Shown here piece after piece: positions 18,201-41,969 of a stretch of DNA of 46,866 nt. Origin of the DNA: an uncultured Gemmatimonadales bacterium (GTDB taxonomy: Bacteria > Gemmatimonadota > Gemmatimonadetes > Gemmatimonadales > GWC2-71-9); the NCBI GenBank assembly GCA_963844035.1, contig CAWJMT010000034.1:1-46866 (forward strand). Direction: 5' to 3'. The notes beneath the pieces were generated by a model. It had not been told where the DNA came from and did no database searches. It saw nothing but the letters and a program-made list of their open reading frames with translations. Position numbers and translations under genes: made by a program. The first letter of the stretch is position 1, and every line of letters starts with the position of its first letter.

Positions 18201-18645
18201 GCCGCGGCTGGAGCTGCCGCTTCGAGTTGCTTGAAGCGCGGCGGTTGCAGCAAGATTGCATCGGCCATTCCGAGCGGTACTTTGAGCGTGCCGTTGACAC
18301 GCGATTGAATGTTTAGCTCGACGTCGAGCTCCGCATGATCGTCGCGGGCATTGCCGGCAATGCGGAGCTCGTCGATTGTGAATCGAGGCTCCGCACTATT
18401 GGCCTCGACGTTTTGGAGCTTCTTCCAGGCGGCCACGAACTCTTCATAACTCATGCCCAGCACAGGCTGCGGCCGGCCCTGCGCGTCGAGGAGCAGGTAG
18501 GTGTCGGGACCGACGTATTCGATTTTGCCTTCGACTTTGGGAGGTTCGGTCGGCGCCGGAGTCTCGCCGGTGGCCCGCGCCAGAGACCGGCGGAGAATAT
18601 CGGCACGAGGATCGCGAGCAGGATTGAGTGCCGGCGGTGATTCAT
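15275..18645 (-). CDS. Large (~1,120 aa) exported protein with C-terminal TM helices (frameshifted)
   Basis: ORFs 16403-18664, 15381-16601 and 15275-15670 chain together. Probable true start MNHRRHSILLAILVPIFSAGL at 18645 gives a signal peptide. Confidence 0.7.
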
Positions 18646-18733
18646 GGCATCCGACGAGCGGCAAGAAACGTGAAAGCTGCCACGATCAGGCGAAGAGAAG
18701 GATGGGCATTTGGCGAAGCGGGTTACCGCCCGG

Positions 18734-19903
18734 TTCCGTACCTGCACGGCTTCAAGGCAGAAGGCCAGCGGGCCCGAACACGATCGAGTACAAGATCGGC
18801 GAGATCTTCGGCGAGATCAAGAACAAGATCCAGAGCGGCTACAACCTGCGCGAGATCATCGACCACATCGACGAGCTGCGCTTCCGCTCGCAGGCCGAGA
18901 AGCACGAGCTCTCGCACCTCTACGAGGCCAAGATCCGCAACATGGGCAACGCCGGGCGCAACGGCGGCGAGTACTACACGCCGCGCCCGCTGATCCGCGC
19001 CATCGTCCAGGTCGTGGAGCCCAAGATCGGCGAGACGCATCTACGACGGCGCCGTCGGCTCGGCGGGCTTCCTCTGCGAGGCCTACGACTACCTGAAGGC
19101 GCGAACCCCGAGCTCACCACCGAGCGAGGACCGCGACCCTCCAGGAGCGCACCTTCTACGGCAAGGAGAAGAAGTCGCTCGCCTACGTCATCGCGATCAT
19201 GAACATGATCCTGCACGGCATCGAGGCGCCGAACATCCTGCACACCAACACGCTCACCGAGAACCTCGCCGACGTCCAGGAGAAGGACCGCTACGACGTG
19301 GTGCTCGCCAATCCGCCCTTCGGCGGCAAGGAGCGCAAGGAGGTCCAGCAGAACTTCCCGATCCGCACCGGCGAGACCGCCTTCCTCTTCCTCCAGCACT
19401 TCATCAAGATGCTCAAGGCCGGCGGGCGCGGCGGCGTGGTCATCAAGAACACCTTCCTCTCGCAACACCGACAACGCCTCGGTGAGCCTGCGCAAGCTGC
19501 TGCTGGAGAGCTGCAACCTGCACACCGTGCTCGACTGCCCGAGCGGCACGTTCCAGGGCGCGGGCGTGAAGACCGTGGTGCTGTTCTTCGAGAAGGGCGC
19601 GCCCACGCGCAAGGTCTGGTACTACCAGCTCGACCCCGGCCGCAACCTCGGCAAGACCAACCCGCTGAACGACGACGACCTCGCCGAGTTCGTCGAGCTG
19701 CAGAAGACCATGGCCGACTCGCCCAAGAGCTGGAGCGTGGACGCCGCCGACATCGACCAGACGACCTTCGACCTCTCGGTGAAGAACCCCGAACGGCGGC
19801 GAGGAGGTCGTGCACCGCAGCCCGCAGGAGATCATGGACGAGATCGCGGCGCTGGATGCCGAGAGCGCGGAGGTGCTGGCGAGCGATCAGGGCGCTGCTG
19901 TGA
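18734..19903 (+). CDS. hsdM: Type I R-M methyltransferase subunit, 5'-truncated and frameshifted
   Basis: Begins abruptly at FPYLHGFK. Contains GEYYTPRPLI, motif I YDGAVGSAGFL and motif IV VVLANPPFGG. Confidence 0.92.
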
Positions 19904-21105
19904 AGAACGGGTGGCAGACAAGGACGCTCGGCGAAGCTCTGCGACGATCGAACTGGCGGAACGCCGAGACGAGCGTCACGACGCTCGTGGCGGACGGCAT
20001 GCCTGTATCACATCGGCGAATGGCAGCTCGAGCGAGACGTCGTCGACGACGAGCGGACATCTCGCTGACGGAGGCAGCTTCACGTACGTCGCCGACGGTG
20101 ACGACATGCTCGGCGATCATCTCGCTCGCGTGCGACCATCGGGCAAGCTCGCGATCTGCACCAAGCGATGGCGATCAGTCGGCTGCAGCGATCTCGTCGT
20201 CGACCAGCGGACTCGACGCACGAGTTCCTGTTCTACTTCCTGCACAGCATTCGATCGAGCATGCTCGACGCATCTGGCACGAGGGCGACGACCGGCAGCG
20301 TCGATCAGGCGAAGCTCATCGAGCAGACTTCCAGATCCCGTTCCGCCGCTCCCCGAGCAGCAGCGGATCGTCGGCATCCTCGACGAAGCGTTCGAGGGCA
20401 TCGCCACCGCCAAGGCCAACGCCGAGAAGAACCTCCAGAACGCCCGCGCGCTCTTCGAGAGCCACCTCCAAGTCCGTCTTCACCGAGCGCGGCGAGGGAT
20501 GGGTGGAGAAGCCGCTCGGCGACGTCTGCGACGATCATCGACGGATCGGCGTCACGATCAGCCACGAGCAAGATCGCGCCACGATGGCGTCGCCGTTCAT
20601 CACGGTCGACAACATCGTCGGCGATCGACGATTGACTTCGTGGACACGTCGACGATCGACGCGAGCACTTCGACGCTCGAGACTGACGCGAAGCCGTCTG
20701 ACGAGGCGACGTCCTGCTCACGCGTGACTCGGTCGTATCGGACGATGCCGATCTGCGGTCGACGAGCTGACGGCGCGATGCTGCTTCCGACAGCACATCG
20801 GATCGTCCGCTCAGAGCCGAGCGATCGATCAGCGCAGTTCCTCGAGTACCTGCGCTTCGTCAGTCGTCAAGGCCGACGTGCAGGCACTGGCACGGGCAGC
20901 CGCACAGCCGAACATCAACGGCAGACGCTTCAAGGCTTCGATGTCCCGATTCCGCCGCTCGACGGAGCAGGCAGCGATCGTCGACGAGCTCGACGCGCCT
21001 CGCGACGAGACCCAGCGCCTCGAATCCATCTACCAGCGCAAGCTCGCCGCGCTGGAGGCGTTGAAGAAGTCGCTGCTCCACCAAGCCTTCACCGGCCAAC
21101 TCTGA
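19900..21105 (+). CDS. hsdS: Type I R-M specificity subunit (TRD regions unreadable)
   Basis: GTGA overlap with hsdM. Conserved spacers PPLPEQQRIVGILDEAFEGIATAKANAEKNLQNARALFES and EQAAIVDELD...LKKSLLHQAFTGQL. Confidence 0.88.
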
Positions 21106-21118
21106 CGGACGCAGCCGC

Positions 21119-23573
21119 ATGAACGAAGCCGAGACCAGAGCCGAGCACATCGACCCCGCGCTCAAGGCGGCGGGCTGGGGCGTCGTCGAGGGCAGCCGCA
21201 TCCTGCGCGAGTACCCGATCACGCCGGGCCGCATCGAAGGCCACGGCCGGCGCGGCAAGCCGCTCACCGCCGACTACGTCCTCGTCTACCGCAACACCAA
21301 GCTGGCCGTGATCGAGGCCAAGGCGTGGGACAAGCCGCTGACCGAGGGCGTCGGCCAGGCCAAGGACTACGCCGACAAGCTGGCCGTCCGCTTCACCTAC
21401 GCCACCAACGGCCAGGGCATCTACGGCATCGACATGGAGACGGGCACGGAGGGCGAGCTGCCGCCGCTACCCCTCGCCCGACGAGCTCTGGGACGCTGAC
21501 CTTCGCCGAGGCGAACGCCTGGCGCGACCGCTTCGCCGCCGTGCCGTTCGAGGACAAGGGCGGCTCGCACCCGAGCCGCTACTACCAGGACATCGCCGTC
21601 GAGCGCGTGCATGGAGGCGATCGCCGCCGGGAAGCAGCGCATCCTGCTCACGCTGGCCACCGGCACCGGCAAGACCTTCATCGCCTTCCAGATCGCCTGG
21701 AAGCTCTTCCACAGCCGCTGGAACCTGAGCCGCGAGCCCACGCGCCGCCCGCGCATCCTCTTCCTCGCCGACCGCAACATCCTCGCCGACCAGGCCTACA
21801 ACGCCTTCTCCGCCTTCCCCGAGGACGCCATGGTGCGCATCAGCCCGGCGGACATCCGCAAGAAGGGCAAGGTGCCCAAGAACGGCAGCCTCTTCTTCAC
21901 CATCTTCCAGACCTTCATGAGCGGCCCGCCGAAGGACGGCGAGCCCTCGCCCTACTTCGGCGAGTACCCGCCCGACTTCTTCGACTTCATCGTCATCGAC
22001 GAGTGCCACCGCGGCGGCGCCAACGACGAGAGCAACTGGCGCGGCATCCTCGACTACTTCGCGCCGGCCGTGCAGCTCGGCCTGACCGCCACGCCCAAGC
22101 GCAAGGACAACGTCGACACCTACGCCTACTTCGGCGAGCCGGTCTACATCTACTCGCTCAAGGAGGGCATCAACGACGGCTTCCTCACGCCCTTCAAGGT
22201 GAAGCAGATCTCGACCACGCTCGACGAGTACGTCTACACGCCCGACGACACAGCTGGTCGAGGGCGAGATCGAGGCGGGCAAGATCTACGAGGAGGAGGA
22301 CTTCAACCGGATCATCGAGATCAAGGAGCGCGAGGCGCTACCGCGTGCAAGCTCTTCATGGAGCAGATCGACCAGCGCGAGAAGACGCTCGTCTTCTGCG
22401 CGACCCAGGACCACGCCCTGGCGGTGCGCGACCTCATCAACCAGATGAAGACGAGCAAGGACCCGCAACTACTGCCAGCGCGTCACCGCCAACGACGGCG
22501 AGCTCGGCGACCAGCACCTGCGCGACTTCCAGGACAACGAGAAGACGATCCCCACGATCCTCACCACCTCGCAGAAGCTCTCGACCGGCGTGGACGCCCG
22601 CAACATCCGCAACATCGTCCTGATGCGCCCGATCAACTCGATGATCGAGTTCAAGCAGATCATCGGGCGCGGCACGCGGCTCTACGACGGCAAGGACTAC
22701 TTCACGATCTACGACTTCGTGAAGGCGCACCACCACTTCAGCGACCCGGAGTGGGACGGCGAGCCGCTGGAGCCCGAGGCCTGCGAGATGTGCGGCAAGT
22801 ACCCTGCGAGTGCATCAAGGAGGTCTGCCCGAGTGCGGCGAGCGGCCGTGCGTCTGCCCCTGCCCGGACTGCGGCGAGCACCCCTGCGTGTGTCCGTGCC
22901 CGAAGTGCGGCAAGTACCCGTGCGAGTGCCCGTGCCGCAGTGCGGCGAGTGGCCGTGCGTCTGCGAGCGCAAGGGCAAGGCGCGGGTGAAGCTCGCCGAC
23001 GGCAAGGAGCGCACCATCCAGCACATGATGTGCACCACCTTCTGGCACCCCGACGGCACGCCGATGTCCGCCCAGCAGTTCATGGAGCTGCTGTTCGGCA
23101 AGCTGCCCGACTTCTTCAAGACGAGGCCGAGCTGCGCGCCCTCTGGAGCGAGCCGGACACGCGCAAGAAGCTGCTGCAGGGGCTCGCCGAGAAGGGCTTC
23201 GGCGGCGAGCAGCTCGCCGAGATGCAGAAGATCATCGACGCCGAGAAGAGCGACCTCTTCGACGTGCTCGCCCACGTGGCCTACGCGCTCCCGCCCGAGA
23301 CCCGCGAGGAGCGCGCCGCGCGCGCCAAGGTCGTCATCGCACGCCAGTTCAACGAGCAAGCAGCAGGCCTTCCTCGACTTCGTGCTCTCGCACTACGTCC
23401 GCGTGGGCGTGGAGGAGCTCGACCAGGAGAAGCTCACGCCGCTGCTCAGGCTGCAGCTACCACGACTCCATCGCCGACGCCGTCGCCGACCTCGGCGACG
23501 CGACGACATCGGCCGCATCTTCGCCGGCTTCCAGAAGTACCTGTATCAGCCGCAGCCGTCAGCTGCGGCGTAG
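21119..23573 (+). CDS. hsdR: Type I R-M restriction subunit, EcoAI/EcoEI-like (frameshifted)
   Basis: MNEAETRAEHIDP, ADYVL...VIEAK nuclease motif, LATGTGKT, IDECH, GLTATP, FKQIIGRGTR, C-terminal GFQKYLY. Confidence 0.93.
22782..22964 (+). repeat. Five tandem CxxCGxxPCxC repeats inside hsdR (mostly 36-nt period)
   Basis: With three single-C deletions corrected: CEMCGKYPCEC, CPECGERPCVC, CPDCGEHPCVC, CPKCGKYPCEC, CPQCGEWPCVC. Confidence 0.85.
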
Positions 23574-23674: not shown

Positions 23675-26014
23675 ATGTCGGTTTCCGATGGGTCTGGCGA
23701 AGATGCGCGACGACTGTCTTGGTGGCTGGAGGACCAGCTGCGTGAGGCTCGGGGTTCGGACCTCGATGGCGACCGCCTAGCGCGACTTCTTGCCGAGGCC
23801 GAGACCCGCGGACTCGATACCTCCTGGCCGTCAATCTATCGCTGGGCGTCCGTCTCGCCGACGCTCGCGCGTGGCACGATGTGCCTGCCGCCGCTGTATG
23901 TGCTTGAGTTCCTGAGCGGTCTCTTCGAGCAAGCCAAGCCCAAGCGCATGCTCGATCCATGGGCAGCCGGCGGCATCCTCTTGGCGTCCCTGCTTCACCG
24001 TGGCGTTGCCGCTGCGGGAGTCGCGGTCGTCCGCCAAGAGATCAGTGGTCTGGAAGCCCTTCTTCCGAGCAGGCCCGCTACCGACTTGGTCCATGGCGAC
24101 CCGCTTGCCATTCTCGATACTGACCTCGGCGAATTCGAGGCAATGGTCTGCGTGCCGCCATTGGGTATGAAGCCAGCCCTCCATGCCCTTCAGTCGGACG
24201 ACGGCCCCGTGGAGCTCAGGGCAGACCCGGCGGTGCTGGCCCTAATTGCAGGGAGCAGACTCCTCACAAGCGATGGGATCGGCGCGGCCGTGGTGCCCTG
24301 GAGAGTGCGCCAGACTCTGGTCGCAGAGCTACCTCGATTTGACTTCCATGTGTCTGCACTCGTTGCGCTGCCTCCGGCGACCCGCATCGGATCTGCTGCG
24401 GTTCCGCTAGAAATCGTCGTCTGGTCGCGCGAGGTGCGGGAGTCGGTCTTCGTTGGTCGGCTCTCTGCGGAAGCCGGCAATGCTGCGCTGCTGGACAATC
24501 TGACTGCGCGCAAGCCCGGGGACGCTCCGGAGATCGGCCGACTTGTTTCCCCTGAGGACTACGTTTCCTTCGACCGTCTTGTCCTCGATGAGGAGATGCG
24601 CCGAAGTGCTAATGAGTCTGGCGGCAAGATTGTGGGTCTGGGCGAAGTCGCCATCGAAATGAACCTTGGCAAGCGATCTGAAGACGGCGGCTTTGAGTCA
24701 CTACCCAATGCCGTCTACCTGCCGCTGATCGGCGAGAGTCCCGTGGTCACGTCGATCTCGGACCTTCGCATCAAGCCGCAGAACTATGTCCAAGTCGTGC
24801 TTGATCCAGAATGCGCTCTCGCCGAATATGCGGCTGGGTGGCTGGACTCCGAGATCGGTCGCGCAGTTCGCCGGGCGGCGACGAGCGGCTTCATTCCGAA
24901 GCTGTCGAAGGGAAGCCTTGAGCACGTTCGGGTCGTCCTGCCTACGGTCGAGGTCCAGGCCGAGACCGTACAGGCGCACCGCATGATCCTCGAGGTTGAG
25001 CAACGCTTGCTCGATCTACGTCATGGTCTGTGGGAGCGTCCGGGCGCCGCAGACGCCGTCGGAGAGGAACTCCGGGACCAAAGCGAGTCGAGCTTCGACA
25101 GCTGGGTGGAGTCACTGCCGTTTCCCATCGCATCGATTCTGAGGCGGTACGAGATCGACCTCACGGCCGAGCATAGGGTTGAGTACCTTCGCCGGTGCTT
25201 CGAGGCCACAGCTCAGTTCACTGCAATCGTGCTCTTGAGCGGTTTCAGCTCCGATTCGGACTACTTCTCTCTCAACCGTGCGGCGCTCATAGGTGCAGGA
25301 TACGAGGCGCCCGAAACAGGGACCTTCGGGAGCTGGTTGCTGCTCGTTGAGCGGCTCGCGAAGCGAGCACGTCAGATGCTCAACGGAAGCGACGAGGAAG
25401 TAAGGGACCTCTGCCTCGACCTGTTCAGGGCGGATCGACGCAACTTGCTCGACGCGATCTGCTCGAAGGACCTGACGCGCACCCTGGGCATTGCCAAGGG
25501 CTACCGGGATAGGTGGGAAGGGCACGGCGGTACGGCAAACGAGGAGGAATGCGCGCGCCGATTGGTCCCTCTTGAGGCTGAACTGGTGCGACTTCGGCGC
25601 ACTCTTGCGGAGGCGTTCGACGGATGGACTCTAGTGCAGCCAGGCGGGTTTGAGTTGGAGCATGGTGTCTACGTGTGCGAGGTCGAGTGTCTGACCGGGA
25701 GCAACATCATGTTCGCCTCGCGCTCCGTGAGGCTCCTGAGACCCATGGACAAGGCGCACCTCTACATGCTGGACCTCAAGGCGGACTGGCCCCGACCGAT
25801 TCGCTTGGTGCCGCTCGTTCGCATGACCGCCGTGCCGCGTACCGAGGATCGTGCGTGCTACTTCTACAGCCGGGTCCTCAGCGCAAAGGCGTCCGAGATC
25901 CGCTGGATCTCGCATCACTTCACGCCAAAACCGGAAGACGATACCTGCGACCCAGACGTGCTCGAACTGGTTCTCAGTCTCGGGACGGCCGTCAAGCGCA
26001 CGTTTGGTAGCTGA
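23675..26014 (+). CDS. 779-aa protein: degenerate N6-MTase fold + HsdS-like TRD + uncharacterised (HEPN-like?) C-terminus
   Basis: GAGGAGG RBS + ATG 23675. MLDPWAAGGILL (motif I-like), VCVPPLG (NPPF position), EYAAGWLDSEIG...SGFIPKLSKGSLEHVRVVLPTVEVQ (TRD/spacer-like), YRDRWEGHGG. Confidence 0.75.
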   Translation: MSVSDGSGEDARRLSWWLEDQLREARGSDLDGDRLARLLAEAETRGLDTSWPSIYRWASVSPTLARGTMCLPPLYVLEFLSGLFEQAKPKRMLDPWAAGGILLASLLHRGVAAAGVAVVRQEISGLEALLPSRPATDLVHGDPLAILDTDLGEFEAMVCVPPLGMKPALHALQSDDGPVELRADPAVLALIAGSRLLTSDGIGAAVVPWRVRQTLVAELPRFDFHVSALVALPPATRIGSAAVPLEIVVWSREVRESVFVGRLSAEAGNAALLDNLTARKPGDAPEIGRLVSPEDYVSFDRLVLDEEMRRSANESGGKIVGLGEVAIEMNLGKRSEDGGFESLPNAVYLPLIGESPVVTSISDLRIKPQNYVQVVLDPECALAEYAAGWLDSEIGRAVRRAATSGFIPKLSKGSLEHVRVVLPTVEVQAETVQAHRMILEVEQRLLDLRHGLWERPGAADAVGEELRDQSESSFDSWVESLPFPIASILRRYEIDLTAEHRVEYLRRCFEATAQFTAIVLLSGFSSDSDYFSLNRAALIGAGYEAPETGTFGSWLLLVERLAKRARQMLNGSDEEVRDLCLDLFRADRRNLLDAICSKDLTRTLGIAKGYRDRWEGHGGTANEEECARRLVPLEAELVRLRRTLAEAFDGWTLVQPGGFELEHGVYVCEVECLTGSNIMFASRSVRLLRPMDKAHLYMLDLKADWPRPIRLVPLVRMTAVPRTEDRACYFYSRVLSAKASEIRWISHHFTPKPEDDTCDPDVLELVLSLGTAVKRTFGS

Positions 26015-26039: not shown

Positions 26040-26231
26040 GTCGGCATTGCGTCGGCACCGTGGGGCAAACGCCTGCTCGCGGCGGCATTCTCGGCGCCAA
26101 GCACGTCTTCTTCACCTCCAACACTCCTCGGAAGCGTGGGGCGTCGGCATGCGGTCGGCAGGCGCTGAGGAATGCCTGCACGTCGGCACTTTCGCTCGGC
26201 AGGGCACGTTCTCAAGACCTCCATCACCCCT
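26040..26231 (+). repeat. Two degenerate 103-bp tandem units resembling recombination sites
   Basis: Both read GTCGGCA-N4-GTCGGCA-N13-GCCTGC-N24-GCACGT-N7-ACCTCCAWCAC-Y-CCT. Units start at 26040 and 26143. Confidence 0.75.
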
Positions 26232-26293: not shown

Positions 26294-26470
26294 ATGGCGC
26301 GCTACAACCGGGCGAACCGCTCTCACCCGCGCGATGCGCTGACCGCCTATGGGGTCGAGGCCGACCGTGTCAATGTCTGGCAGACCGTCGGCAAGCTGCG
26401 GCGCCGGCACGGGCTCGTGCTGCGCGGCGAGTTACGGGAGCCCGGCGAGGCGCTCAGTCGGCGCCGATGA
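26294..26470 (+). pseudogene. Possible winged-helix gene remnant
   Basis: ADRVNVWQTVGKLRRRHGLVLRGE..EPG resembles an OmpR-type recognition helix and wing. No clear start. Confidence 0.3.
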
Positions 26471-26472
26471 CA

Positions 26473-27054
26473 CTAGTCCAGGTGCAGAGCAGACAGCAGT
26501 TCATCCATCACAGCTACTTGTCGTTCCGGAGGCCACTTGCCGGGATTCTCAACCGCGCCGATGCTGATTCCGTGCGCGGCGGCGCGGAGTATGTCGACGA
26601 CGAGCTCCTGCTGGTGCGTTTCGACTAGGCCGTCGAGATGACCCCTGATCATGTCTCGCATCCAGGTGTCCATATCGTTGCGAAGCTTTGCCCCGACCGG
26701 CGACATCTCACCGATTGCGGAGGCGACCATCTGAAACCACGCCCGCTCTTCTAGGAGACCTTCTTCATCAAGAGGCAGCATCCACATCAGGGTGCCTCGA
26801 AGTGCTGCTGCGGCGTCGGGGATCGCATCGAGCGAGTCCAGGTCTGTCTGCCAGCGCGCTAGCAGCGCCGGCCCGATGTCGTCGAGGAGTGACTGTCGCG
26901 TCGGGTAGTAGTGCGTGACCATTGTGACCGTCCCGCCTAGCCTCTTGGCCAACGCGCGCATCGTCAGGCCCTTGACCCCCGCCTCACCCATGAGGGCGAC
27001 CGCTGCCTCGGCGATTTCCGTGCGCCGTTCGTCGTGATTCACCTGGCGTGGCAC
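26473..27054 (-). CDS. TetR/AcrR family regulator (BetI-like)
   Basis: MPRQVNHDERRTEIAEAA...GLTMRALAKRLGGTVTMVTHYYPTRQSLL. Confidence 0.93.
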   Translation of the reverse strand: MPRQVNHDERRTEIAEAAVALMGEAGVKGLTMRALAKRLGGTVTMVTHYYPTRQSLLDDIGPALLARWQTDLDSLDAIPDAAAALRGTLMWMLPLDEEGLLEERAWFQMVASAIGEMSPVGAKLRNDMDTWMRDMIRGHLDGLVETHQQELVVDILRAAAHGISIGAVENPGKWPPERQVAVMDELLSALHLD

Positions 27055-27124
27055 TCGCGTCCCCTTCCGTGGCCGAGCGGATTGTACGGCGTTTCATGCT
27101 TCAGAAAAAAGACGCCGACTTAGC

Positions 27125-27163
27125 TTGACTTGGTATAACAGCCGTAATATAACACCTGGAATA
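27125..27163 (+). promoter_or_regulatory. Sigma70-type promoter overlapped by two putative TetR operators
   Basis: TTGACT (27125-30)-N17-TATAAC (27148-53). Quasi-palindromes TATAACAGCCGTAATA (27134-49) and TATAACACCTGGAATA (27148-63). Confidence 0.7.
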
Positions 27164-27184
27164 AATAACCGCTAGGGGGAGCGC

Positions 27185-28672
27185 ATGAGCCTTGTGCCTG
27201 CAGTCCAGATGGCCTCGACCGAGCGAATGCTCGCGTGGGTGGACGCTCTTGTCGCGCTCAGCCCAAGACTCCCGACAACTGAGGGAGGGCAGAGAGCCTG
27301 CCGGTACCTGACTGAGGAGTTCGAGCGTGCCGGGCTCGAAGGGGTCACTGTCGACGAGACACCGACGCTAGTTTGGACGGCGCGTGCCTATGGTCTAGCC
27401 GTCGAGGGGCGCGACTTTCCTTGCCACCCGATGACCCACAGCTTCTCGGACGCTCGGCCTGGGGAATTCGCCACCCCGACCGGAGGCCTGGCCGCTCCCT
27501 TCGTCTTCATCGGAGACGGGGGGCTGGAGGACTTCGAGAACACAGACGTCGAGGGCAAAGTCGTAGTCGCGCAGGGGAGATTCGAGAAGATCTATGCGGA
27601 TGGCCGGTCCTACCACTTCCAAGGCCCCTCGCCCGCCGGCCGCGGCGAGGACTTCGTGCTGGACGTCTACTCGCCGAACACCTTCCCGGCGAACTACTAC
27701 AGAGCGGTCGAAGCCGGAGCCGTAGGCTTCGTCTGCGTCCTCTCTGATTACTATCGCGATCGGGACAGCTACTCGAACGAGGCCTACGACGCCTACAATG
27801 GCTCGCCGCTGACGATTCCCGGTCTATGGGTGAGCCCTTCGACGGGCGAAGCGCTGCGTGACGCCATTGAATCTTCCGGAGGCGAGGTAGACGGCAGGCT
27901 GCTGCTGGAGGGGTCGTCGCATGAGGCGACCAGCCGGACTGTCCTCGGCCACCTCTCCGGGTCGGGACCCAACCGCCACGAGACAATTCTCATCGAGTCG
28001 CACTACGATTCGGCTACGCCAGGCGCCGTCCAGGATGCATCGGGCATCTCTGCAGTGCTGGCCATCGCGGACTACTTCGCCCAGGTTCCGCTCGAGAGTC
28101 GCAATCGCAGCCTGCTCTTCTGCGCCTTCGATACTCACTCCGGCGACTACGCTGCTCATCACAACTTCGTTGAGTCGCACCTCGAGCAGGACAACGTTGT
28201 CTTCGTCGCCAGCATCGAGCACATCGGCCTGGACGTTGTGGACGGGCCGTCGGGGCCGGTCGTGACCGAGTACAGCGTCCCACGCCTGTTGTGGGTGTCG
28301 CCAGTCGATCAGCTCATCGAGATCGCCATTGACGCGGTCAAAGCGAACGAGGTGGAGCGGACCAACATCTTGCCGGCCGACTACAACCCGGACGAGCTCC
28401 CGTGCGACGCGGATCACATCTATCAGGCCGGGGTGCCAGCGCTCAGCCTTGTCGGAGTTCCCGTGTACATCTACGACGAGATCGACACGACGGACAAGGT
28501 GAACCGGCGACAGCTCCGCCCCACAGCGCAGGCGTTTGCCGACGCCGTTGCCCGCATCGACCGATTGCCGGCGGACGTCTTGGCTCAGGCCAAGCGACCG
28601 CCAAGAGACACATCAGCGCGGCGAACATGGAGGTCGCGATGGCACGCGACAACTACCGTCTCGCGCGACTAG
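27185..28672 (+). CDS. M28 family metallopeptidase with PA domain
   Basis: APFVFIGDG...DVEGKVVV (PA domain); ILIESHYDS...PGAVQDASG; DTTDKVN. Confidence 0.8.
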   Translation: MSLVPAVQMASTERMLAWVDALVALSPRLPTTEGGQRACRYLTEEFERAGLEGVTVDETPTLVWTARAYGLAVEGRDFPCHPMTHSFSDARPGEFATPTGGLAAPFVFIGDGGLEDFENTDVEGKVVVAQGRFEKIYADGRSYHFQGPSPAGRGEDFVLDVYSPNTFPANYYRAVEAGAVGFVCVLSDYYRDRDSYSNEAYDAYNGSPLTIPGLWVSPSTGEALRDAIESSGGEVDGRLLLEGSSHEATSRTVLGHLSGSGPNRHETILIESHYDSATPGAVQDASGISAVLAIADYFAQVPLESRNRSLLFCAFDTHSGDYAAHHNFVESHLEQDNVVFVASIEHIGLDVVDGPSGPVVTEYSVPRLLWVSPVDQLIEIAIDAVKANEVERTNILPADYNPDELPCDADHIYQAGVPALSLVGVPVYIYDEIDTTDKVNRRQLRPTAQAFADAVARIDRLPADVLAQAKRPPRDTSARRTWRSRWHATTTVSRD

Positions 28673-28713
28673 TAGTTCACACTGACCAGGGAATCCGTTC
28701 AAGGGGGAAGACG

Positions 28714-30387
28714 ATGAGGCGCATGCAGAAATCCTGTTCCGCGCGCAGTCACACGGCCGTTGTTGTGTTGATGGCGTTGACCATCGCGGCCGCAGCTGCT
28801 CTGCTTCTGACGGCCTGTGGCAGCTCCAGTGGTAGCACATCGACCACGAGCAGTTCGCCGACAGCCTTGGCGGCAGTGGTCGGCGAGGCCGCGGGCGACA
28901 TTGACCAGCTCACATGGGATTCTCCCTACGGTGAGCCAGACACTCTCGATCCAAGAAACGCCGTCTGGTATCCAAATCTGCTCCTCACCGGCAACTTGGT
29001 CGACACGCTCGTCCGTACTACCCCTGAAGGCGAGATGGCACCTGGAATCGCGGAAAGCTGGAGCCAGCCGGACGACAAGACCTTGGTGCTCAAGATCCGC
29101 GAGGACGTGAAGTTCTGGGACGGCAATCAGCTCACCGCCGCTGACGTCGTCTATTCACTGCAGCGCGCAGGAGCGCCTGACTCGTACACCGCCGCCAACT
29201 ACACGTTCGTCAAGGCGATCAAGGCCACCGGCGACTACGAGGTCACTGTGTCGTTCAAGAGCCCGGACGAACTCTTCCTCAAGGAGATGGCGACCGGCTC
29301 AGGCGGCATCATCGAGAAGAAGTGGGCGGAGAAGGCGGGGAAGTCAGTCGGAACGCCCAAGGGCGGGATCATGGCGAGTGGGCCTTTCAAGCTTGAGAAG
29401 TGGACGCCAGGTCAGAGCATCGAGCTCTCCCGCAACGACCTCTACTGGGATTCCGCCTATCGCGCGCACGCCGCGGCGGTCTCCGTCAAGTTCGTGTCCG
29501 ACTCCACAGCTCTGGCACAGGCTCTCATCGCAGGCGAGATCGATGGAGCGTACGAGGTGCCAGCGTCCATCATCCCCCGTCTGAGCGACTCCTCGACCGG
29601 CGCACTGCAGCTCGGTCCGTCCCAGCAGTTCCTCGAGTTCGGACGCATTCGGCCCGATGGGCCGCTGGCTAACGCCAAGCTCTGCGAGGGCCTCTTCAAG
29701 GCCGTGGATCGAGAAGGCCTGGCAAAGGTGATCTTCAACGGCGCCGCAGAGGCGAACTACACCATGCTCTCCCCTGGGATCTGGGATCCGGAGGCATATG
29801 ACCAGTGGAAGCAGGCGTACCAGCCGTACGTGCAGGCGAACGCCTACGATGTGGAAGCGGCCAAGAAGCTCGTAGCAGAGAGCGGATACTCGGGAGAGCC
29901 GATCCAGCTCGTCATCCAGGCCGGCGATTCCACCCAGGAGCAGACCGGGCAGCTGATCCAGGAAGAGGCCAGAGCGGTCGGTATCACGATCGAGATCAAG
30001 ACTCTGCAACCACTCGAGTACTCGAATATCTGGATCGATCCTCAGGCGCGGAAGCCGTACGACCTCTACGTGGTGATGGCCTTCAACGGACGGCCTGATC
30101 CCGTCGAGTTGCTCAACTTCGTCTTCGTGACGCCGGTGTACAACTACACTGAGTACAACAATCCCCAGGTCACCGCTCTGATCGAAGAGGCGAGGGCGTC
30201 ATCAGATCCAGCAAAGCGCACCGACTTGCTGATTCAGGCGCAGACCATCTATGAGCCCGACAATGTGCTCACCAGCCTTGTGATGCCGTACGAGATCAGC
30301 TACCTGAACGGCGACTACACCGGCATGATCACTTCGTTCAACTATGCGTTCCTGCCGTCACTCGCCACGATCGGCTCGGCGAAGTAG
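28714..30387 (+). CDS. Peptide/nickel ABC transporter substrate-binding lipoprotein (family 5)
   Basis: Lipobox LLLTAC; PGIAESW, VKFWDGNQLTAADVVYSL, SGPFKLEKW. Confidence 0.93.
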   Translation: MRRMQKSCSARSHTAVVVLMALTIAAAAALLLTACGSSSGSTSTTSSSPTALAAVVGEAAGDIDQLTWDSPYGEPDTLDPRNAVWYPNLLLTGNLVDTLVRTTPEGEMAPGIAESWSQPDDKTLVLKIREDVKFWDGNQLTAADVVYSLQRAGAPDSYTAANYTFVKAIKATGDYEVTVSFKSPDELFLKEMATGSGGIIEKKWAEKAGKSVGTPKGGIMASGPFKLEKWTPGQSIELSRNDLYWDSAYRAHAAAVSVKFVSDSTALAQALIAGEIDGAYEVPASIIPRLSDSSTGALQLGPSQQFLEFGRIRPDGPLANAKLCEGLFKAVDREGLAKVIFNGAAEANYTMLSPGIWDPEAYDQWKQAYQPYVQANAYDVEAAKKLVAESGYSGEPIQLVIQAGDSTQEQTGQLIQEEARAVGITIEIKTLQPLEYSNIWIDPQARKPYDLYVVMAFNGRPDPVELLNFVFVTPVYNYTEYNNPQVTALIEEARASSDPAKRTDLLIQAQTIYEPDNVLTSLVMPYEISYLNGDYTGMITSFNYAFLPSLATIGSAK

Positions 30388-30411
30388 AGGGCGAAAGGGA
30401 CAAGGCGATCG

Positions 30412-31392
30412 GTGTCAGCCGCGGCGATGAGCAAGTCGATGGCAGGTAGAGGCGGACGAGGCGCCCTGAGGTGGGTGGTGGCTCCGCTCGCCACGATCCT
30501 GGTGGCATCCTTCATCGTCTTCGCGGCAATCGCCGCCGCGCCGGGCGACCCTGTGGCCCGGATGCTCGGGGCCAAGTCGACCTTGGCGCAGCGAGCTGCG
30601 CTACGGCATGAGCTTGGCCTCGACCAGGCTCTCGTGGAGAGGTACTGGCACTGGCTGACCGGCCTCGCGCAAGGCGACCTTGGCTCGTCCCTCACCTACA
30701 AGGCGCCCGTCACGACTCTGCTCTCCGGTCGGGTGTCCGTGACGCTCTTCCTCGTCATCTACGCAGCCATCTTGGTGATTGCGGTAGGCGTGGGGCTCGG
30801 CATCGTGGGAGGCGCGTTCAGGAAGATGGGCTCTCCGGTCGCCGGCCTCACAGCCGTCGGAGTCGCCGTGCCCAGCTTCGTCGCGGCACAAATCTTGGTA
30901 GCTGTCTTCGCGCTCGGACTCGGGTGGTTCCCGACGATTGGCGCGGGCGACAGTTTCGGAGACCGCGTCTGGCATCTCACACTGCCGGCCATTGCGCTTG
31001 CGATAGGGGCGGGCGCCTACGTCGCGCAAATCACACGCGCGTCCGTCTTCGAGGAGCGCTCTCGCGAGCACGTCGAGGTCGCCCGCGGACGTGGCGTCCC
31101 TGAATCCGTCATCTTCCGTCGCCATGTGCTGCGGAACGCCTTCGTGCCCATCATGACGGTCTCCGCTATGACTGCTGCTGGGCTGATCGCAGGGGCTGTG
31201 GTCGTCGAGTATGCGTTTGGTCTCAGTGGGCTCGGCTCACTGCTGGTCGAAAGCGTCTCGAACAAGGACTACGACGTGGTCCTCGCAATCGTCATGTTCC
31301 TGCTCATCGTCTTCGTGGCGACGATGGCATTGATCGACATCGTGCAGATCCTCGTGGATCCCCGTTTGCGCGACAGGGGGACGACCTCATGA
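30412..31392 (+). CDS. ABC permease (DppB/OppB-like)
   Basis: APGDP, GDLGSS, ARGRGV...RHVLRNA, DPRLR. The start may be 30428 or 30439. Confidence 0.93.
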   Translation: MSAAAMSKSMAGRGGRGALRWVVAPLATILVASFIVFAAIAAAPGDPVARMLGAKSTLAQRAALRHELGLDQALVERYWHWLTGLAQGDLGSSLTYKAPVTTLLSGRVSVTLFLVIYAAILVIAVGVGLGIVGGAFRKMGSPVAGLTAVGVAVPSFVAAQILVAVFALGLGWFPTIGAGDSFGDRVWHLTLPAIALAIGAGAYVAQITRASVFEERSREHVEVARGRGVPESVIFRRHVLRNAFVPIMTVSAMTAAGLIAGAVVVEYAFGLSGLGSLLVESVSNKDYDVVLAIVMFLLIVFVATMALIDIVQILVDPRLRDRGTTS

Positions 31393-32258
31393 GTCAAGTG
31401 GCCATGCCCCGCCCCAGACGCCTTTCCTTGGGAGCGCGTCTTGGCCAGACCGTCAAGGAAGACCCGGTGCTCCTCATCTCCGGCGCTCTTTGTCTCCTGC
31501 TCGTGCTGCTCATCTTCGCAGGGCCTCTCTTGGCGCCCAACGACCCGAGACAGACGGATATCCTGAATGCGAATCAGGGGACCTCCGGTGCGCATTGGTT
31601 GGGGACCGACCAACTTGGACGAGACATCCTGTCCCGGGTGCTCTACGGGGCGCGGGCAAGCCTGGTGGGCGCTGCGGTGGTCGCTGTCTTCGGAGCTGTA
31701 CTCGGGACAGCCATGGCGATCGTGTCCGCTTGGTACGGCAGGTGGGTGGACAGCGGTTTGATGTACTTCGCGAACATCCTGTTCGCGGTGCCGGCCATAC
31801 TCATCGCCATCGTGGCCGTCGCGGCGTTCGGAGCGGGCCTTCTCGCTCCCGTGATCGCCCTGTCGATCGCATACGCGCCCTACTACGCGCGAGTCATGCG
31901 CGCCATCGCCGTTCAGGAACGGACGAAGCCCTACATCGAGGCGAACCTCTTGGCGGGGTTCTCGATTCCGCGCATTTGGCTGTATCACTTCCTGCCGAAC
32001 ATGCGGCCCATCCTGATCGCGCAGGTGACGGTCTGCTACGGGTTCGCCCTCCTCGATCTCGCGGCGATCTCATTCTTGGGCTTCGGCGTCCAGCCGCCCA
32101 CTGCCGAATGGGGTCGCATGGTGTCGGAGGCGCGCTCGGCTCTTCTCAATGGCTACCCGCAGGCGGCGCTTTCGGCCGGGGCCATGATCGTGCTTGCGGT
32201 GGTCGCTTTCGTCGTCTTCGGCGAGAGGCTCTCGGCCCGAGCCAAGAGGGACGCATGA
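31389..32258 (+). CDS. ABC permease (DppC/OppC-like)
   Basis: HWLGTDQLGRDILSRVLYGARASL; SFLGFGVQPPTAEWG. Confidence 0.94.
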   Translation: MSQVAMPRPRRLSLGARLGQTVKEDPVLLISGALCLLLVLLIFAGPLLAPNDPRQTDILNANQGTSGAHWLGTDQLGRDILSRVLYGARASLVGAAVVAVFGAVLGTAMAIVSAWYGRWVDSGLMYFANILFAVPAILIAIVAVAAFGAGLLAPVIALSIAYAPYYARVMRAIAVQERTKPYIEANLLAGFSIPRIWLYHFLPNMRPILIAQVTVCYGFALLDLAAISFLGFGVQPPTAEWGRMVSEARSALLNGYPQAALSAGAMIVLAVVAFVVFGERLSARAKRDA

Positions 32259-33265
32259 GTGATCAGGCTCGCGGGCCGCTGCTCACCGTCGAGCATGTGA
32301 GTCTTGCTCTCAAAGTGCGTGGCGGGATGCGGAGGATACTGCAAGACATCTCCAGCTCCGTTCGCGCCGGTGAGTCTGTCGGCTTGGTCGGCGAATCCGG
32401 CTCCGGCAAGAGCATGACCATCAAGACGATACTGAGGCTCCTCCCCCCCGGTGCCCAGGTTGTCGGGAATGTGACTTTCGACGGTCAGCCCGTGCTTTCG
32501 ATGACCGGGTCGGCTCTCCGACGCTATCGTGCCCGCGACGTCGCGATGATCTATCAGGATCCCCGAGTGAGCGTGAATCCGCTGCGCACCATCGAAGACT
32601 TCCTGCTCGAGGGGCTGGTGACGGTGAATGGGATTGCTCCAGCGCAGGCCAGAGAGGCCGCCATCGAGCAGCTGCTTCAAGTCGGGATCCCCGACGCCGG
32701 GCGCCGGCTGCGGCAGTATCCGCACCAGCTGTCCGGTGGGCTGCTGCAGCGCGTCGTGATTGCCGCAGCGCTGCTGACTCAGCCTCGACTCATCCTTGCC
32801 GACGAGCCTACTACGGCCCTCGACGTGACCACCCAGGAGGAAGTCGTAGCCATCCTCGACGAGCAGCGCCGCGAGAGAGGCCTCGCCATGCTGTTTGTGA
32901 GTCACAATCTCGATCTCGCCGCCGCTGTGACGGACCGCATCGTCGTCATGTATGCAGGCGCGATTGTGGAGGACGCATCCTCCGCCGGCTTCTTCGAGAC
33001 CGCGCTTCATCCGTATGCCAGGGGTCTGCTGGCGGCGCGGCCGGGGATTCGTCGTGTCGATCGCCTCGCCGTAATACCCGGTCGGCCGGCCGCGGCGTTC
33101 GAGGTCGGTGACGGTTGCGTCTTTGTTGACCGCTGCGCCTATGCCGACGATCGCTGCAGGATGACGCGACCGCAGCTGCGCCCCGTCGCGGACCACCTCG
33201 TCGCCTGCCATCGAGTCGAGGAGCTCGTGGGGCAGGGACTCTATGAGGGAGTGACGATCGCGTGA
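32255..33265 (+). CDS. ABC ATPase (DppD/OppD-like)
   Basis: ATGA overlap; GESGSGKS, YPHQLSGG, ADEPTTALD, C-terminal Cys motif. Confidence 0.94.
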   Translation: MSDQARGPLLTVEHVSLALKVRGGMRRILQDISSSVRAGESVGLVGESGSGKSMTIKTILRLLPPGAQVVGNVTFDGQPVLSMTGSALRRYRARDVAMIYQDPRVSVNPLRTIEDFLLEGLVTVNGIAPAQAREAAIEQLLQVGIPDAGRRLRQYPHQLSGGLLQRVVIAAALLTQPRLILADEPTTALDVTTQEEVVAILDEQRRERGLAMLFVSHNLDLAAAVTDRIVVMYAGAIVEDASSAGFFETALHPYARGLLAARPGIRRVDRLAVIPGRPAAAFEVGDGCVFVDRCAYADDRCRMTRPQLRPVADHLVACHRVEELVGQGLYEGVTIA

Positions 33266-34107
33266 GCGCCCTGCTGAAAGTGGACTCACTCCGCAAGGTG
33301 TTCTCGGTGCGCGGCCGCGATGGCGGGGCCGAAGAGCTCGTCGCAGTTGACGACGTCAGCTTCGTGGTACCGCACTCAGGATCGCTCGCCATCGTCGGCG
33401 AATCCGGTTCGGGCAAGACCACTGTGGCGCGCATCATCGCCGGCTTGGAGACGTCTACGGCGGGCGTCGTCACAGTGGAAGGGGCGCAGCGTGAAGGCGG
33501 TCGTCTGTCATCAAAGACGCGCCGACTCCAGGCACGCCAGATCCAGATGGTGTTCCAGGACCCTTACTCGTCACTGGATCCCCACCAGTCCGTGGACGCC
33601 GCCATCTCTGAAGTGCTTCGCGAGCATCTCGGCCTCGACCGCAGGGCGCGCAAAGAGCGCGTGACCGAGATCCTCGAGATGGTGGGACTGGACGAGCGGC
33701 ACCTGGCCGCGCTGCCACGCGCGCTCTCAGGGGGACAGCGGCAGCGCGTCGCAGTCGCCAAGGCCCTTGCCGTCAGTCCTCGCCTCCTGATCCTTGATGA
33801 GGCGGTCTCCGCTCTGGACGTAAGCGTGCAAGCCCAGGTGCTCAACATGCTCGCCGATCTCCGCACTACGCTCGAGGTCGCCTTCCTGTTCATCTCCCAT
33901 GACCTCGGTGTGGTGCGGCAGATCAGCGAGGAGTGCGTGGTCATGTACCACGGAAGAGTCGTCGAGGCGGGGGCCACGGACGAGGTTCTACGCAGTCCGA
34001 CCGACCCGTACACGCAGCAGCTTCTTGCGGCCATTCCCGAGCCCGGCTGGCGACCGCAGCGGCACAATGCCGGTGGACGGCAAACGACAGAGGGGCGGAC
34101 GGCATGA
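33262..34107 (+). CDS. ABC ATPase (DppF/OppF-like)
   Basis: GESGSGKT, LSGGQRQR, LDEAVSALDVSVQAQ. Confidence 0.94.
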   Translation: MSALLKVDSLRKVFSVRGRDGGAEELVAVDDVSFVVPHSGSLAIVGESGSGKTTVARIIAGLETSTAGVVTVEGAQREGGRLSSKTRRLQARQIQMVFQDPYSSLDPHQSVDAAISEVLREHLGLDRRARKERVTEILEMVGLDERHLAALPRALSGGQRQRVAVAKALAVSPRLLILDEAVSALDVSVQAQVLNMLADLRTTLEVAFLFISHDLGVVRQISEECVVMYHGRVVEAGATDEVLRSPTDPYTQQLLAAIPEPGWRPQRHNAGGRQTTEGRTA

Positions 34108-35552
34108 CGACTACTGGGGGCGACGACCTCTGCTACATGACCGCGACCGAGTTGGCCAGAGCGTTTCACTCGCACACGACTTCCCCGGTTGAACTAGTCA
34201 CGGCACTTCTCGATCGCATCGAACGCCTGAACCCCAAGGTCAATGCATTTGTCACGCTCCTCGGCGAGCAGGCGCTCGCACAGGCTGAAGCCGCGGAGAG
34301 ACGCCTGATGTCCGGAGAGACGGTGGGACCGCTCTGCGGTCTTCCCGTGATGGTGAAGGACTTGACGCCGACCGCAGGCGTGAGAACGACGTTCGGATCA
34401 TGTCACTACTCGGAGTATGTCCCGAAGGAGGATGCTCCCATCTGGGCGCGGCTGAAGGCCGCGGACGCCATCCTCCTCGGCAAGACGACGACCCCTGAGT
34501 TCGGAGAGCACTCGATCACCGAGAGTCCGCTCACGGGCGTCACCAACAACCCGTGGGATCTCTCGCGTACGGTGGGTGGCTCGAGCGGCGGCTCTGCTGC
34601 AGCACTGGCGGCAGGATTCGGACCTCTCGCCACCGGGAGCGACGGCGGCGGCTCGATACGGGTGCCATCCGCCTTCTGCGGCGTCGTCGGCCTCAAGCCT
34701 TCGCCGGGTCGCATACCGCTGGGTCCCGAAGGTTCTCCTTACGACACCGTGTCAGTGGTCGGCCCCATGACACGGACGGTGGCCGACGCCGCCCTGCTGC
34801 TGACCGCGGTCGCAGGCCCCGACCCGTACAATCCGGTGTCCCTCCCCGAGCAGGGGGTGGACTACCTGGCCCTGCTCAAGAACGCCTCTGTCAAGGGTCT
34901 GCGAGTCGCATTCAGCCCCGACCTGGGCAACCCTCCCATCGAGAGTGGTGTGAGTGCTGCACTGGAGCGCGCAGCAGAGGCGTTCGAGCGGGAACTCGAG
35001 GCGGAAGTCGAGGAGGTCGATCTTCAGCTGCCGGACCCCTTCGACTACTTCGTGCATTGGTGGGCGCCTCAGATCGCCCTGGAGTTCGATGAGTTCGTCA
35101 CTTCGATTGGCGCCGACCCAAGTGGAAGCCATCCTCTCTTCCAGGAGGTCGTCGCAGAGGGCCGAGCCATGTCAGCCGTCGAGTATGCGCAGGTTCAATA
35201 CAGGCAACGCGCCAGGATCCACAAGGCGTTCGCAGAGGTATTCGCTGACTACGACCTGCTCCTCATGCCGACGACGCCTATGGCAGCCTTTCCTCATCCA
35301 GGTCCAGAGGGAGGACCGCTTGAGGTGGCGGGCAGATCCTCGAATTACCCAGCGCTTGAGAATCAACGCTGTACCGAGGCCATTGCGCACGCCGGCTACC
35401 CCGCCATTACGGTCCCCTGTGGATTCACGCAAGAGGGCCTGCCTGTAGGGCTGCAGATCGCCGCTGGCCATGGGCGTGACGCAGACGTTCTCCGCGCCGC
35501 AGCAGCATTCGAGCGGGCCACACCCTGGCAATCTCGCCGGCCCCTGCTTTAG
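34104..35552 (+). CDS. Amidase signature family enzyme
   Basis: GLPVMVKD (Lys), GGSSGGSAAA, GSDGGGSIRVPSAFCG. Confidence 0.95.
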   Translation: MTTTGGDDLCYMTATELARAFHSHTTSPVELVTALLDRIERLNPKVNAFVTLLGEQALAQAEAAERRLMSGETVGPLCGLPVMVKDLTPTAGVRTTFGSCHYSEYVPKEDAPIWARLKAADAILLGKTTTPEFGEHSITESPLTGVTNNPWDLSRTVGGSSGGSAAALAAGFGPLATGSDGGGSIRVPSAFCGVVGLKPSPGRIPLGPEGSPYDTVSVVGPMTRTVADAALLLTAVAGPDPYNPVSLPEQGVDYLALLKNASVKGLRVAFSPDLGNPPIESGVSAALERAAEAFERELEAEVEEVDLQLPDPFDYFVHWWAPQIALEFDEFVTSIGADPSGSHPLFQEVVAEGRAMSAVEYAQVQYRQRARIHKAFAEVFADYDLLLMPTTPMAAFPHPGPEGGPLEVAGRSSNYPALENQRCTEAIAHAGYPAITVPCGFTQEGLPVGLQIAAGHGRDADVLRAAAAFERATPWQSRRPLL

Positions 35553-35659: not shown

Positions 35660-35944
35660 TGCCGACATGCTGCTGACGAGACGTCTCGCCACGGCTGAGT
35701 ATGCGCCATCGCTCGAGGTCATCGCCCCTCGCCAGAACCTTGGACTGTGCAGCACTTTCGCGTCCCGGCCACCACCCGGCGACACCGCAGTCTGACGACT
35801 GCAAAACCTCCATCAGCGGTTCGACTCCGCTCGCCGCCTCCAACAACTTCCCTGCATCTGGCGATTTCCGGTCGTGCGCACCTGCGCACAGAACTTCCGA
35901 ATCGGCAGGACTGCCGACATTCGGCCGACGAGACTCGGCGGCAT
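35660..35944 (+). repeat. attP-like site 1 (arm - tRNA-Cys core - arm)
   Basis: TGCCGAC-N4-TGCTGAC at 35660, GTGCAGCAC at 35747, core 35799-35842, TCGGCA-N4-TGCCGAC-N4-GGCCGAC at 35902-35929. Colinear with 41970-42251. Confidence 0.8.
35799..35842 (+). pseudogene. tRNA-Cys(GCA) 3' half only (att core)
   Basis: CTGCAAA anticodon loop, T arm AGCGG-TTCGACT-CCGCT, acceptor 3' strand and TCCA. No 5' acceptor strand or D arm upstream. Confidence 0.88.
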
Positions 35945-36090
35945 ACGGTGGTACTGCTGCGCATGAGGCGCATGAGGCGTGACAGTCAGGGCGACGTTCC
36001 CCACCCGCGCGGACTGGTTACACTGCAGGGACGAGCTCTGCCTGGGGCGCCGTGCCGGCTCTCCCGGTAGAGTGCGCGTGAGACCTGGAG

Positions 36091-36705
36091 GTGGCGTTGG
36101 CCTCGATCCCTGCTGGAACGTTGGTCCGTTTCCGCGCCAAAGAGATGGCGCGGCTGCGCTTCCCGCCTCCTTGCGCCGAGGCGGGCATCGCCGTGCACCC
36201 CGACGCCCTGCGTGCGCCGCAGAACGGACTGACGCTTGCCGCGTGCGCAGATGCCGCACGCTGCCTGCAGTGGGTCGGCGCCGTGGATGAGCAGATGCTG
36301 CTGCCCACCGCTGAGCGGGGCGCGTCGCTGCGCGCGGCGATCCTTGAGCGACTGCTCGTCGGCGGCCGCAGCTGGCAGGTGGTGCGGCCCGGACTGCTCA
36401 CCACTGCCGGCGTTGGCGATCCCTACCTGACGCTCTACGCAGGGGAGCGGCCCTGGGTGGTGCTCGGCGAACTCGAGGATGGCCAGCTGCTGGCCGCTCC
36501 TTTGAACGGTGTTCTCGGTAACCCGAAATGGTTCGCCCCGCAGGTGGCCGCGCGACACCTGCTGTTCCCCGGCGCCAGGGCCGCGCAGCTCGAGCTCGCG
36601 CACCTGTGGTCGCTTCCGGCGACGCTCCGGAGCAGCGGCGTGGTCCACGGCGATGCCCACGCCGATCTCGGCTGGTCGCTGATCGAGTACTACGCGGCGG
36701 ACTGA
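36091..36705 (+). CDS. Hypothetical protein, C-terminal half possibly PemK/MazF-like
   Basis: 204-aa ORF; ERPWVVLG...LLAAPLN...QLELAHLWSLP pattern. Fold assignment by eye only. Confidence 0.55.
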   Translation: MALASIPAGTLVRFRAKEMARLRFPPPCAEAGIAVHPDALRAPQNGLTLAACADAARCLQWVGAVDEQMLLPTAERGASLRAAILERLLVGGRSWQVVRPGLLTTAGVGDPYLTLYAGERPWVVLGELEDGQLLAAPLNGVLGNPKWFAPQVAARHLLFPGARAAQLELAHLWSLPATLRSSGVVHGDAHADLGWSLIEYYAAD

Positions 36706-36847
36706 GGCCGCGCTCACTGCTAGCGGCCACAAACATGAGGGGCGTCGCATCACCCGGCGCGTGGCTTCCCGTGCTGCCGCCCTCCCCGTGCCCGCAGAGG
36801 TCAGTCGGCCGACTCTCCTCCTCGAGGGCCTTGCCGTCCACCGAAGC

Positions 36848-40144: not shown

Positions 40145-40159
40145 CTCGTGCTCCTTGGG

Positions 40160-41417: not shown

Positions 41418-41969
41418 AGAAGCTCTCCCGCCAACCTGCTGAAAGGTGGGCGTGGCCGGTAGGGTGCCTTCGGCGGATCAACGGCTTCCTTGCGGACCGT
41501 CGCTCCGCATCTTATAGCCACCTGTACCTCGCGCGTCGCCAGTCCAAGCGGCGGTGCTGTTGGCGGGATGAGCCGGGAGGCAGGGTCACGAGGAAGGCTG
41601 GAGAGTCGACCGCACACAAGGCGATGCTGGCATGCCGGCATCAGCATCATCACGATCGGAGACGACAACCAAGGTGAGAATAGCCTCCGAGGCGACAATT
41701 AGTGGGCCACCAGCGACACCCGGGTCCCGCGTCACGGGGACGATAGCAGGCGATTCGGGTTGGGCCATGTGCGATCTGCGACCGACCCTACAGATCTTCC
41801 TCATCAAGTGTGAGTGATTGCCCTGAGGGGCCTCGGATATTTGACTGTCGGCAGACCCCTGCAGGTACGTGGGCCGGCTCCAATCGCTGAATCGGCAAGG
41901 AGCGGGCTCAAGACAGACGTTCGAGGCGAGGGCCGCCTTGCTGGGCCATCGTCTCGGCACCACCGCCAC

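Follow-up and report, generated by a model that had tools for sequence, protein, structure and literature searches.

Two units lying 103 bp apart within a 46,866-nucleotide contig (hereafter the window, by which we mean the whole stretch of DNA analyzed) are probably recombination sites of an integron-like cassette system, apparently undescribed, that would be driven by the arm-binding tyrosine integrase of tRNA-associated islands. We regard them as a candidate cassette system because related sites form a family, share a fixed anatomy, keep a single orientation within arrays, lie between genes, coincide at their cores with breaks in homology, and are found fused to tRNA junctions. A bolder reading, on which we are evenly divided, would make this a second, independently evolved integron. 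On that view, a tRNA-targeting, phage-type integrase would have acquired a dedicated cassette site with a single arm, as well as a primary site next to its gene; it would gather and rearrange dozens of cassettes in each genome, in a phylum for which complete integrons were not found, and the 7-bp spacer would serve as an adjustable lock that decides which cassettes can leave.

The first unit (mini-site 1; 26040..26124, plus strand) comprises an arm-repeat pair (26040-26057), a middle motif (26073-26077), a left half-site (26103-26106), the spacer CTTCTTC (26107-26113), and a right half-site with a tRNA-like flank (26114-26124). In the second (mini-site 2; 26143..26227, plus strand), the arm-repeat pair (26143-26160), middle motif (26176-26180), and left half-site (26206-26209) precede the spacer TCTCAAG (26210-26216) and the right half-site with its flank (26217-26227). 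Re-reading the sequence confirmed the positions, interval, and spacers given in a preliminary description of the window. That description also took the arm pair for the reverse complement of the arm motif at 35660 and 41970; this holds for both pairs there, save that their second heptamer differs by one base. With a profile trained on 24 sites of other genomes, the window's two left out, the units scored 40.6 and 50.9 bits, while the best score elsewhere in the 3.47-Mb source assembly (G000) was 11.4 bits and the best among 100 dinucleotide shuffles of the window was 12.6 bits. A short arm-pair pattern occurred five times in the window, versus a mean of 0.01 in 100 shuffles, none of which (0/100) reached five. 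For significance against shuffled sequence, which the preliminary description had left to be estimated, the short pattern and the profile take the place of its full composite motif. All five arm-pair matches and all four core matches in G000 fall within the window, which is the whole contig. An RNA gene or structured RNA was considered and rejected: there was no Rfam match at E ≤ 1, no tRNA, and no stable fold. Folding z-scores for both units on both strands (-0.07, 0.05, 0.93, and 1.25; 2 of the 170 sites described below) were no better than those of shuffles.

The repeat was originally said to mark the boundary between a defence and a catabolic module, and it does. Mini-site 1 starts 25 bp past the stop codon of an N6-methyltransferase/S-subunit-like gene (23675..26014, plus strand; very high confidence from Atlas features), the last gene of the cassette ending at this site, which had no Pfam, NCBIfam, or PADLOC match. 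Upstream lie type I restriction-modification genes (M, S, and R; 18501..23573, plus strand) that are frameshifted in the assembly; a contig from run X2 bridges these and the methyltransferase-like gene (window 23240-24091). Between the two cores runs a gene-less 103-bp cassette (26114..26216, plus strand). Downstream of mini-site 2 are a short gene remnant (26294..26470, plus strand), a relative of which follows sites in G201:C29 and G208:C6, and then a block of TetR, M28 peptidase, peptide ABC transporter, and amidase genes that fills the interval from mini-site 2 to the first tRNA junction (26473..35552, unstranded).

Two attP-like tandem junctions follow on the plus strand. In junction 1 (35660..35929; 97.7 bits with a left-arm profile whose training set included it), the left arm pair (35660-35677) precedes an overlap at 35799-35805 that corresponds to the tRNA-Cys anticodon loop, a tRNA 3' half extending to 35843, and right arm repeats extending to 35929; junction 2 (41970..42236) has its overlap at 42108-42114. 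The cores at 35799 and 42108 are both tRNA-Cys 3' halves with the anticodon loop as overlap. Arm repeats flank each of them left and right at fixed spacing, which is the layout of a junction between tandemly integrated elements. No intact tRNA occurs in the window, and the tRNA-Cys of G000 differs in its 3' half from the junction halves. The integrase-less element between the junctions (35806..42107, unstranded) holds an unidentified gene, an adenylate-cyclase/AAA/PDZ gene, and an RCC1-repeat gene, and its first kilobase resembles the stretch preceding the integrase in G152:C30. The first gene (36193-36705), which lacks a family match, is found after tRNA-Cys junctions in three genomes (G152, G150, and G195) and, in G152, also ahead of the integrase; the second (36848-40144) encodes a 1,098-residue protein with adenylate/guanylate cyclase, AAA, trypsin-like, and PDZ domains. 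A single arm heptamer with a middle motif (41847-41863) lies upstream of the junction 2 arm pair. No conjugation module was found in the island part of the window.

Several observations bear on the origin of this DNA. The first 18.5 kb of the window are unlike the remainder in 4-mer composition, and one protein encoded in 1-18600 weakly resembles Planctomycetota clusters (recognition below the tool's threshold). When species genomes were scanned for the right side of the junction, 60 stretches were retrieved, and 28 with window-like spacing were inspected. Twenty-four of these proved to be true junctions or intact tRNA-Cys sites, belonging by title to Thermoleophilia (n = 20), Actinomycetota (n = 3), and a proteobacterium (n = 1). 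Neither the stretch nor the site was present in 60 relatives of G000: a BLAST search with 25900-26400 gave chance matches of 23 to 30 bp in 2/60, and the arm pattern occurred at background level in 120 relatives. Given the composition shift, the Thermoleophilia junctions, and the relatives lacking stretch and site, the contig is probably either misbinned or a chimera with its join near 18.6 kb, and its island part would derive from a member of the Thermoleophilia. The cognate island integrase is absent from G000, which carries three tyrosine recombinases on other contigs, none close to it.

The preliminary description had made its reading depend on further copies in related genomes. These exist in 51 of 89 genomes of one Thermoleophilia family, that of G152, versus 0 of 60 control genomes (36-site model, best E ≤ 1e-4), but none occurs in the relatives of G000 itself. 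A more tolerant tally at E ≤ 0.01 (70/89) was dropped because 23/60 controls also match at that level (best, 22.1 bits). Across a class-wide sample, 18/151 genomes matched, 17 of them from the same family, and individual genomes held many sites at E ≤ 0.001 (49 in G222, 34 in G203, and 20 in G197). Earlier searches with strict unit patterns had retrieved none from viral contigs, genome contigs, or five Thermoleophilia genomes and one from metagenomes because the patterns were too strict, as the later profile showed. From fetched stretches chosen around matches (2.2 Mb, 33 sources), 171 profile matches were extracted. One of them was the tRNA itself, the only match with the Cys loop as its 7-bp spacer. 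The two junction classes found use the Cys and Arg loops, and the possibility that the spacers match other tRNA loops was set aside. The remaining 170 sites carry 79 spacers, and 161 of them score at least 20 bits, against a reversed-sequence control of at most 16.0 bits.

These sites, which recur inside elements of Thermoleophilia islands at tRNA-Cys and tRNA-Arg, share a fixed anatomy: an arm pair opposite in direction to the left arm pair of the junctions and beginning 63 bp before the core, a short middle motif, and an imperfect palindrome around seven bases. Two main classes of right flank occur, one resembling the tRNA-Cys 3' half and the other with GTG directly after the half-site, and a shorter-spaced variant of the site also exists. 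One rival possibility, which we consider improbable, is that the sites are worn attL or attR ends (CIME-type scars) that remain after whole elements have repeatedly accreted in tandem and decayed, and that they serve no dedicated cassette function. The arrays do consist of tandem accretions at tRNA genes, elements lacking an integrase and integrase remnants are numerous in them, and accretion of CIMEs is described in the accessible text of PMC5704250. The two tRNA-Cys junctions in the window, where displaced tRNA 3' halves bearing arms enclose an integrase-less element, fit that description. There, however, internal sites are chimeric element ends with a common target repeat, whereas the elements here contain an additional, smaller class of site that has its own layout and 79 spacers. 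Its anatomy is unlike either element end (reversed arm pair; 63 bp to the core rather than about 135 bp as at tRNA junctions), its spacing is constant in all 170 sites while the filler diverges, no tRNA overlap is shared, and its members bound single genes as well as empty units that recur core to core. The suggestion that the units are secondary-site scars suits only a minority of sites.

The islands carry a tyrosine integrase on the opposite strand (PF00589 and PF14659), with many full-length copies and many remnants. Its closest solved structures (6EN0, 6EMY, and 6EMZ; E about 5e-16) are those of what we take to be Tn1549 Int, and it aligns with 6EN0 at its R, K, HxxR, H, and Y residues. 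The code 6EMY occurs three times in the accessible text of PMC5871717. The enzyme is not IntI: the integrase of L172 reached 31.7 bits against TIGR02249 (cutoff, 265) and 24.9 bits against NF011946 (cutoff, 435). At tRNA-Arg(CCT), related copies form tandem arrays in which the arm repeats and half-sites are the same; one region, G197:C1 at about 570000-680000 (L247-L253), holds at least 10 such junctions with arm repeats of the tRNA-Cys family, several overlaps being altered. At 5 of 12 full-length integrase loci, a short-spaced site lies 220 to 260 bp beyond the start of the integrase match; the other seven lack it, and none is found in the window. Two mini-site arms are fused to tRNA-Cys 3' halves (G153:C5 and G222:C2), and one junction arm is fused to a mini-site right flank of the GTG class (G216:C11). 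Because the arms of the two site classes form such hybrids, we infer that mini-sites and tRNA junctions are served by the same recombinase, as the preliminary description had proposed from the window; shared arms and half-sites in other genomes further support that proposal. The hybrids also suggest that strand exchange proceeds across unlike crossover regions.

The surroundings of the sites are those expected of cassette boundaries. Within each array, sites share one orientation (set by their own matches in arrays without a tRNA anchor), and the sole opposite-strand match sits on a core already counted. Cores fall inside genes, as called by a simple codon model, in 4 of 170 cases, versus 107 expected. 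The gene upstream of a site is co-oriented with it in 106/127 cases and the downstream gene in 77/133. Cassettes hold one to many genes, and their cargo lies on both strands, which argues against a strict common-promoter rule. A selection of 101 proteins was unrelated in function (methyltransferases, hydrolases, transporters, regulators, and unassigned proteins) and included no relaxase family. Eleven of 107 neighbor intervals measure at most 200 bp; these are 92 to 182 bp long and gene-less. Homology between loci ended within 15 bp of a core in 48 of 1,094 cases, versus 6.0 expected, although many of these come from the single genome G222 and are not independent. Two blocks, of 1.4 kb (88.5% identity) and 1.5 kb (95.9%), each occur in two genomes core to core with other neighbors and other spacers; among seven homologous pairs within 96 intervals longer than 300 bp, these two alone run core to core at both ends. 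Together with the site family itself, this core-to-core recurrence and these homology breaks uphold the earlier view that the system is more than simple tRNA integration.

Left arms that share the same 60 bp lead into different spacers and right flanks, and in G222 (C15, C22, C23, C24, C69, C73, C86, and C100) a 230- to 250-bp stretch ending at a core occurs in many copies with differing right flanks, like the end of a mobile element or a cassette-making template. Such a stretch is what would be expected if the sites were binding or decoy sites, or the ends of small repeat elements, that do not themselves recombine. We judge this very improbable, since the different right flanks start exactly at the core, including in an independent run, and seven variable bases within a palindromic core match the design of tyrosine-recombinase crossover sites.

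The spacers are strongly reused. Identical pairs number 345, versus 38 ± 10 under a position-independent null, and individual spacers recur across sources (CATCAAG in 10, CACCTGA in 8, and TCTCAAG in 6). A common spacer is shared by 192 of 8,950 pairs with unrelated flanks, and orders recur, such as CGTGTAG, CTCCAAG, then CTTCTTA. A fully spacer-blind reaction does not predict this reuse and these orders. They would sit well with spacers serving as orthogonal addresses, in which full 7-bp identity is needed, only like sites recombine, and blocks flanked by unlike spacers are locked in place or swapped by double exchange between related islands. The same model draws on the lack of identical neighboring spacers (0/107, versus 5.3 ± 2.1 in within-genome shuffles), a result that also runs counter to the suggestion that spacers pair up around gene blocks. 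The depletion is weak under a global shuffle (0/99 versus 2.4 ± 1.5; p about 0.09) and within segments (4/212 versus 5.1), however, and other findings make us think strict addressing unlikely. Different spacers follow identical left arms, the same cassette differs in spacer at both ends in two genomes, mini-site arms fused to tRNA halves keep their own, non-tRNA spacer, and several arms are joined to non-consensus targets. The orthogonal overlaps put forward in the preliminary description are thus not sustained in their strict form. The simplest reading of the spacers may instead be a mismatch-tolerant exchange, in which blocks between like spacers are perhaps lost more quickly. We also considered and set aside a fixed 3+4 crossover rule. 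Spacer positions 1 to 3 track the left arm in G222 pairs (0.79, 0.74, and 0.65; n = 106), but 14 other pairs show no such step, and the whole spacer carried onto a tRNA half contradicts the rule.

Under the cassette reading that we favor, each cassette would start with the right half of a core, end with the left half of the following core, and have a single arm pair at the downstream end. By binding this arm pair and the core, the integrase would cut the cassette out as a circle, which would then enter another core, often the short site beside the integrase gene. No such circle was seen in the contigs, where rare circles would escape notice. Since the 7-bp spacers of partners mostly differ, mismatches would have to be tolerated, as they are by the integrases of the Tn916 family and CTnDOT, and the product would keep the spacer of one parent or a mosaic. 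The window would then contain one gene-less cassette between the methyltransferase cassette and the catabolic block, the integrase being missing from the assembly.

Copies of this locus in other samples support the idea, raised in the preliminary description, that the 103-bp unit is an empty cassette. In L332 (G195) it recurs with 100/122 identities (82%); the homology extends from core 1 to core 2, the flanks are unrelated, and no arm is present on the left. A 102-bp version (74/107) lies between CTTCTTA and TCTCAAG in G234:C6. An arrangement similar to that in L332 is seen in a 151-nt contig of run X1 covering window 26102-26189, although this run may be the source study of the window and is not counted as independent support. 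A 2,380-nt contig of the independent run X2 tracks window 24067-26117 with 17 differences and then continues into 329 nt of other DNA; the point of departure, 26117, is the last base of the right half-site of core 1, and the new DNA opens with a flank of the GTG class. Among the run contigs, none spans both units and none has a joint that skips the 103 bp. A loose end at 26208 in X8 was considered as such a joint and rejected, its 8 letters being too short to count.

Most of what is known about bacterial gene-cassette capture comes from integrons, in which the integrase recognizes folded single strands. Integrons and CALIN, as covered in the consulted text of PMC4889954, resemble the present arrays in having co-oriented sites between unrelated genes, genes mostly upstream of their site, empty units, arrays without an integrase, and, as in some of our loci, an opposite-strand integrase with a distinct site in the attI position. 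They differ in using IntI, whereas the island integrase falls far below the TIGR02249 cutoff; in having attC hairpins, whereas the two units folded have direct arm repeats and no hairpin; and in that the cassettes here range from one to many genes on either strand and the platform is a tRNA-integrating island. For Actinobacteria, the same text reports only In0 elements.

Likenesses to other systems concern single parts. The integrases of Tn916/Tn1549 and CTnDOT are likewise arm-binding tyrosine integrases that recombine unlike crossover regions, with mismatch-tolerant exchange shown for IntDOT (consulted text of PMC2817482) and Tn1549 Int (that of PMC5871717), and the island enzyme shares their catalytic residues and SAM-like domain, as judged from PF00589, PF14659, and the 6EN0 alignment. 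As far as those texts go, what they move are entire conjugative elements, and the targets are A/T-rich or scattered, whereas the elements here enter tRNA anticodon loops, where the overlap is constant, and it is the internal cassette sites that have variable spacers. Tn554 and the strand-biased circularizing (SE) elements, in the portion of PMC10214605 available to us, similarly carry a variable 6-bp spacer from site to site as a footprint. They use two recombinases plus helpers to move whole elements; here one integrase type was found, and the spacer is not faithful to one flank. PMC11014353, to judge from its accessible part, concerns an unrelated, dif-like system. The integrase family, accretion, and mismatch tolerance are therefore known parts, and their combination was not found in the literature: full-text searching, mostly of journals outside subscription, showed no description of such a system among the entries listed.

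If the sites work as proposed, an ordinary tRNA-integrating element would reach cassette capture in Actinobacteria through double-stranded, arm-bearing sites, and tools that seek attC would miss the system. The sites would offer a direct handle on how accessory genes gather in tRNA islands, and the 79 spacers a natural library for the overlap-identity needs of an arm-binding integrase. Compact sites for multi-cassette genome engineering are a possible use.

Further features of the islands were noted in passing. Arrays in G216:C1, G197:C1, G203, and G151:C6 contain integrase remnants by the dozen, in which the C-terminal end is retained and the break falls at varied points upstream; breakage at mini-sites was considered and rejected, with no consistent site among the breaks listed. 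At G188:C23 (array position 3947) and G195:C5 (array positions 32262 and 33769), tRNA 3' halves carry other left arms, which points to more integrase clades at the same locus. Finally, in six loci (L309, L314, L319, L320, L324, and L310) a conserved segment of roughly 120 bp upstream of the integrase separates the start of that gene from the neighboring site; it contains an inverted repeat and one arm heptamer and is likely an autoregulated promoter.
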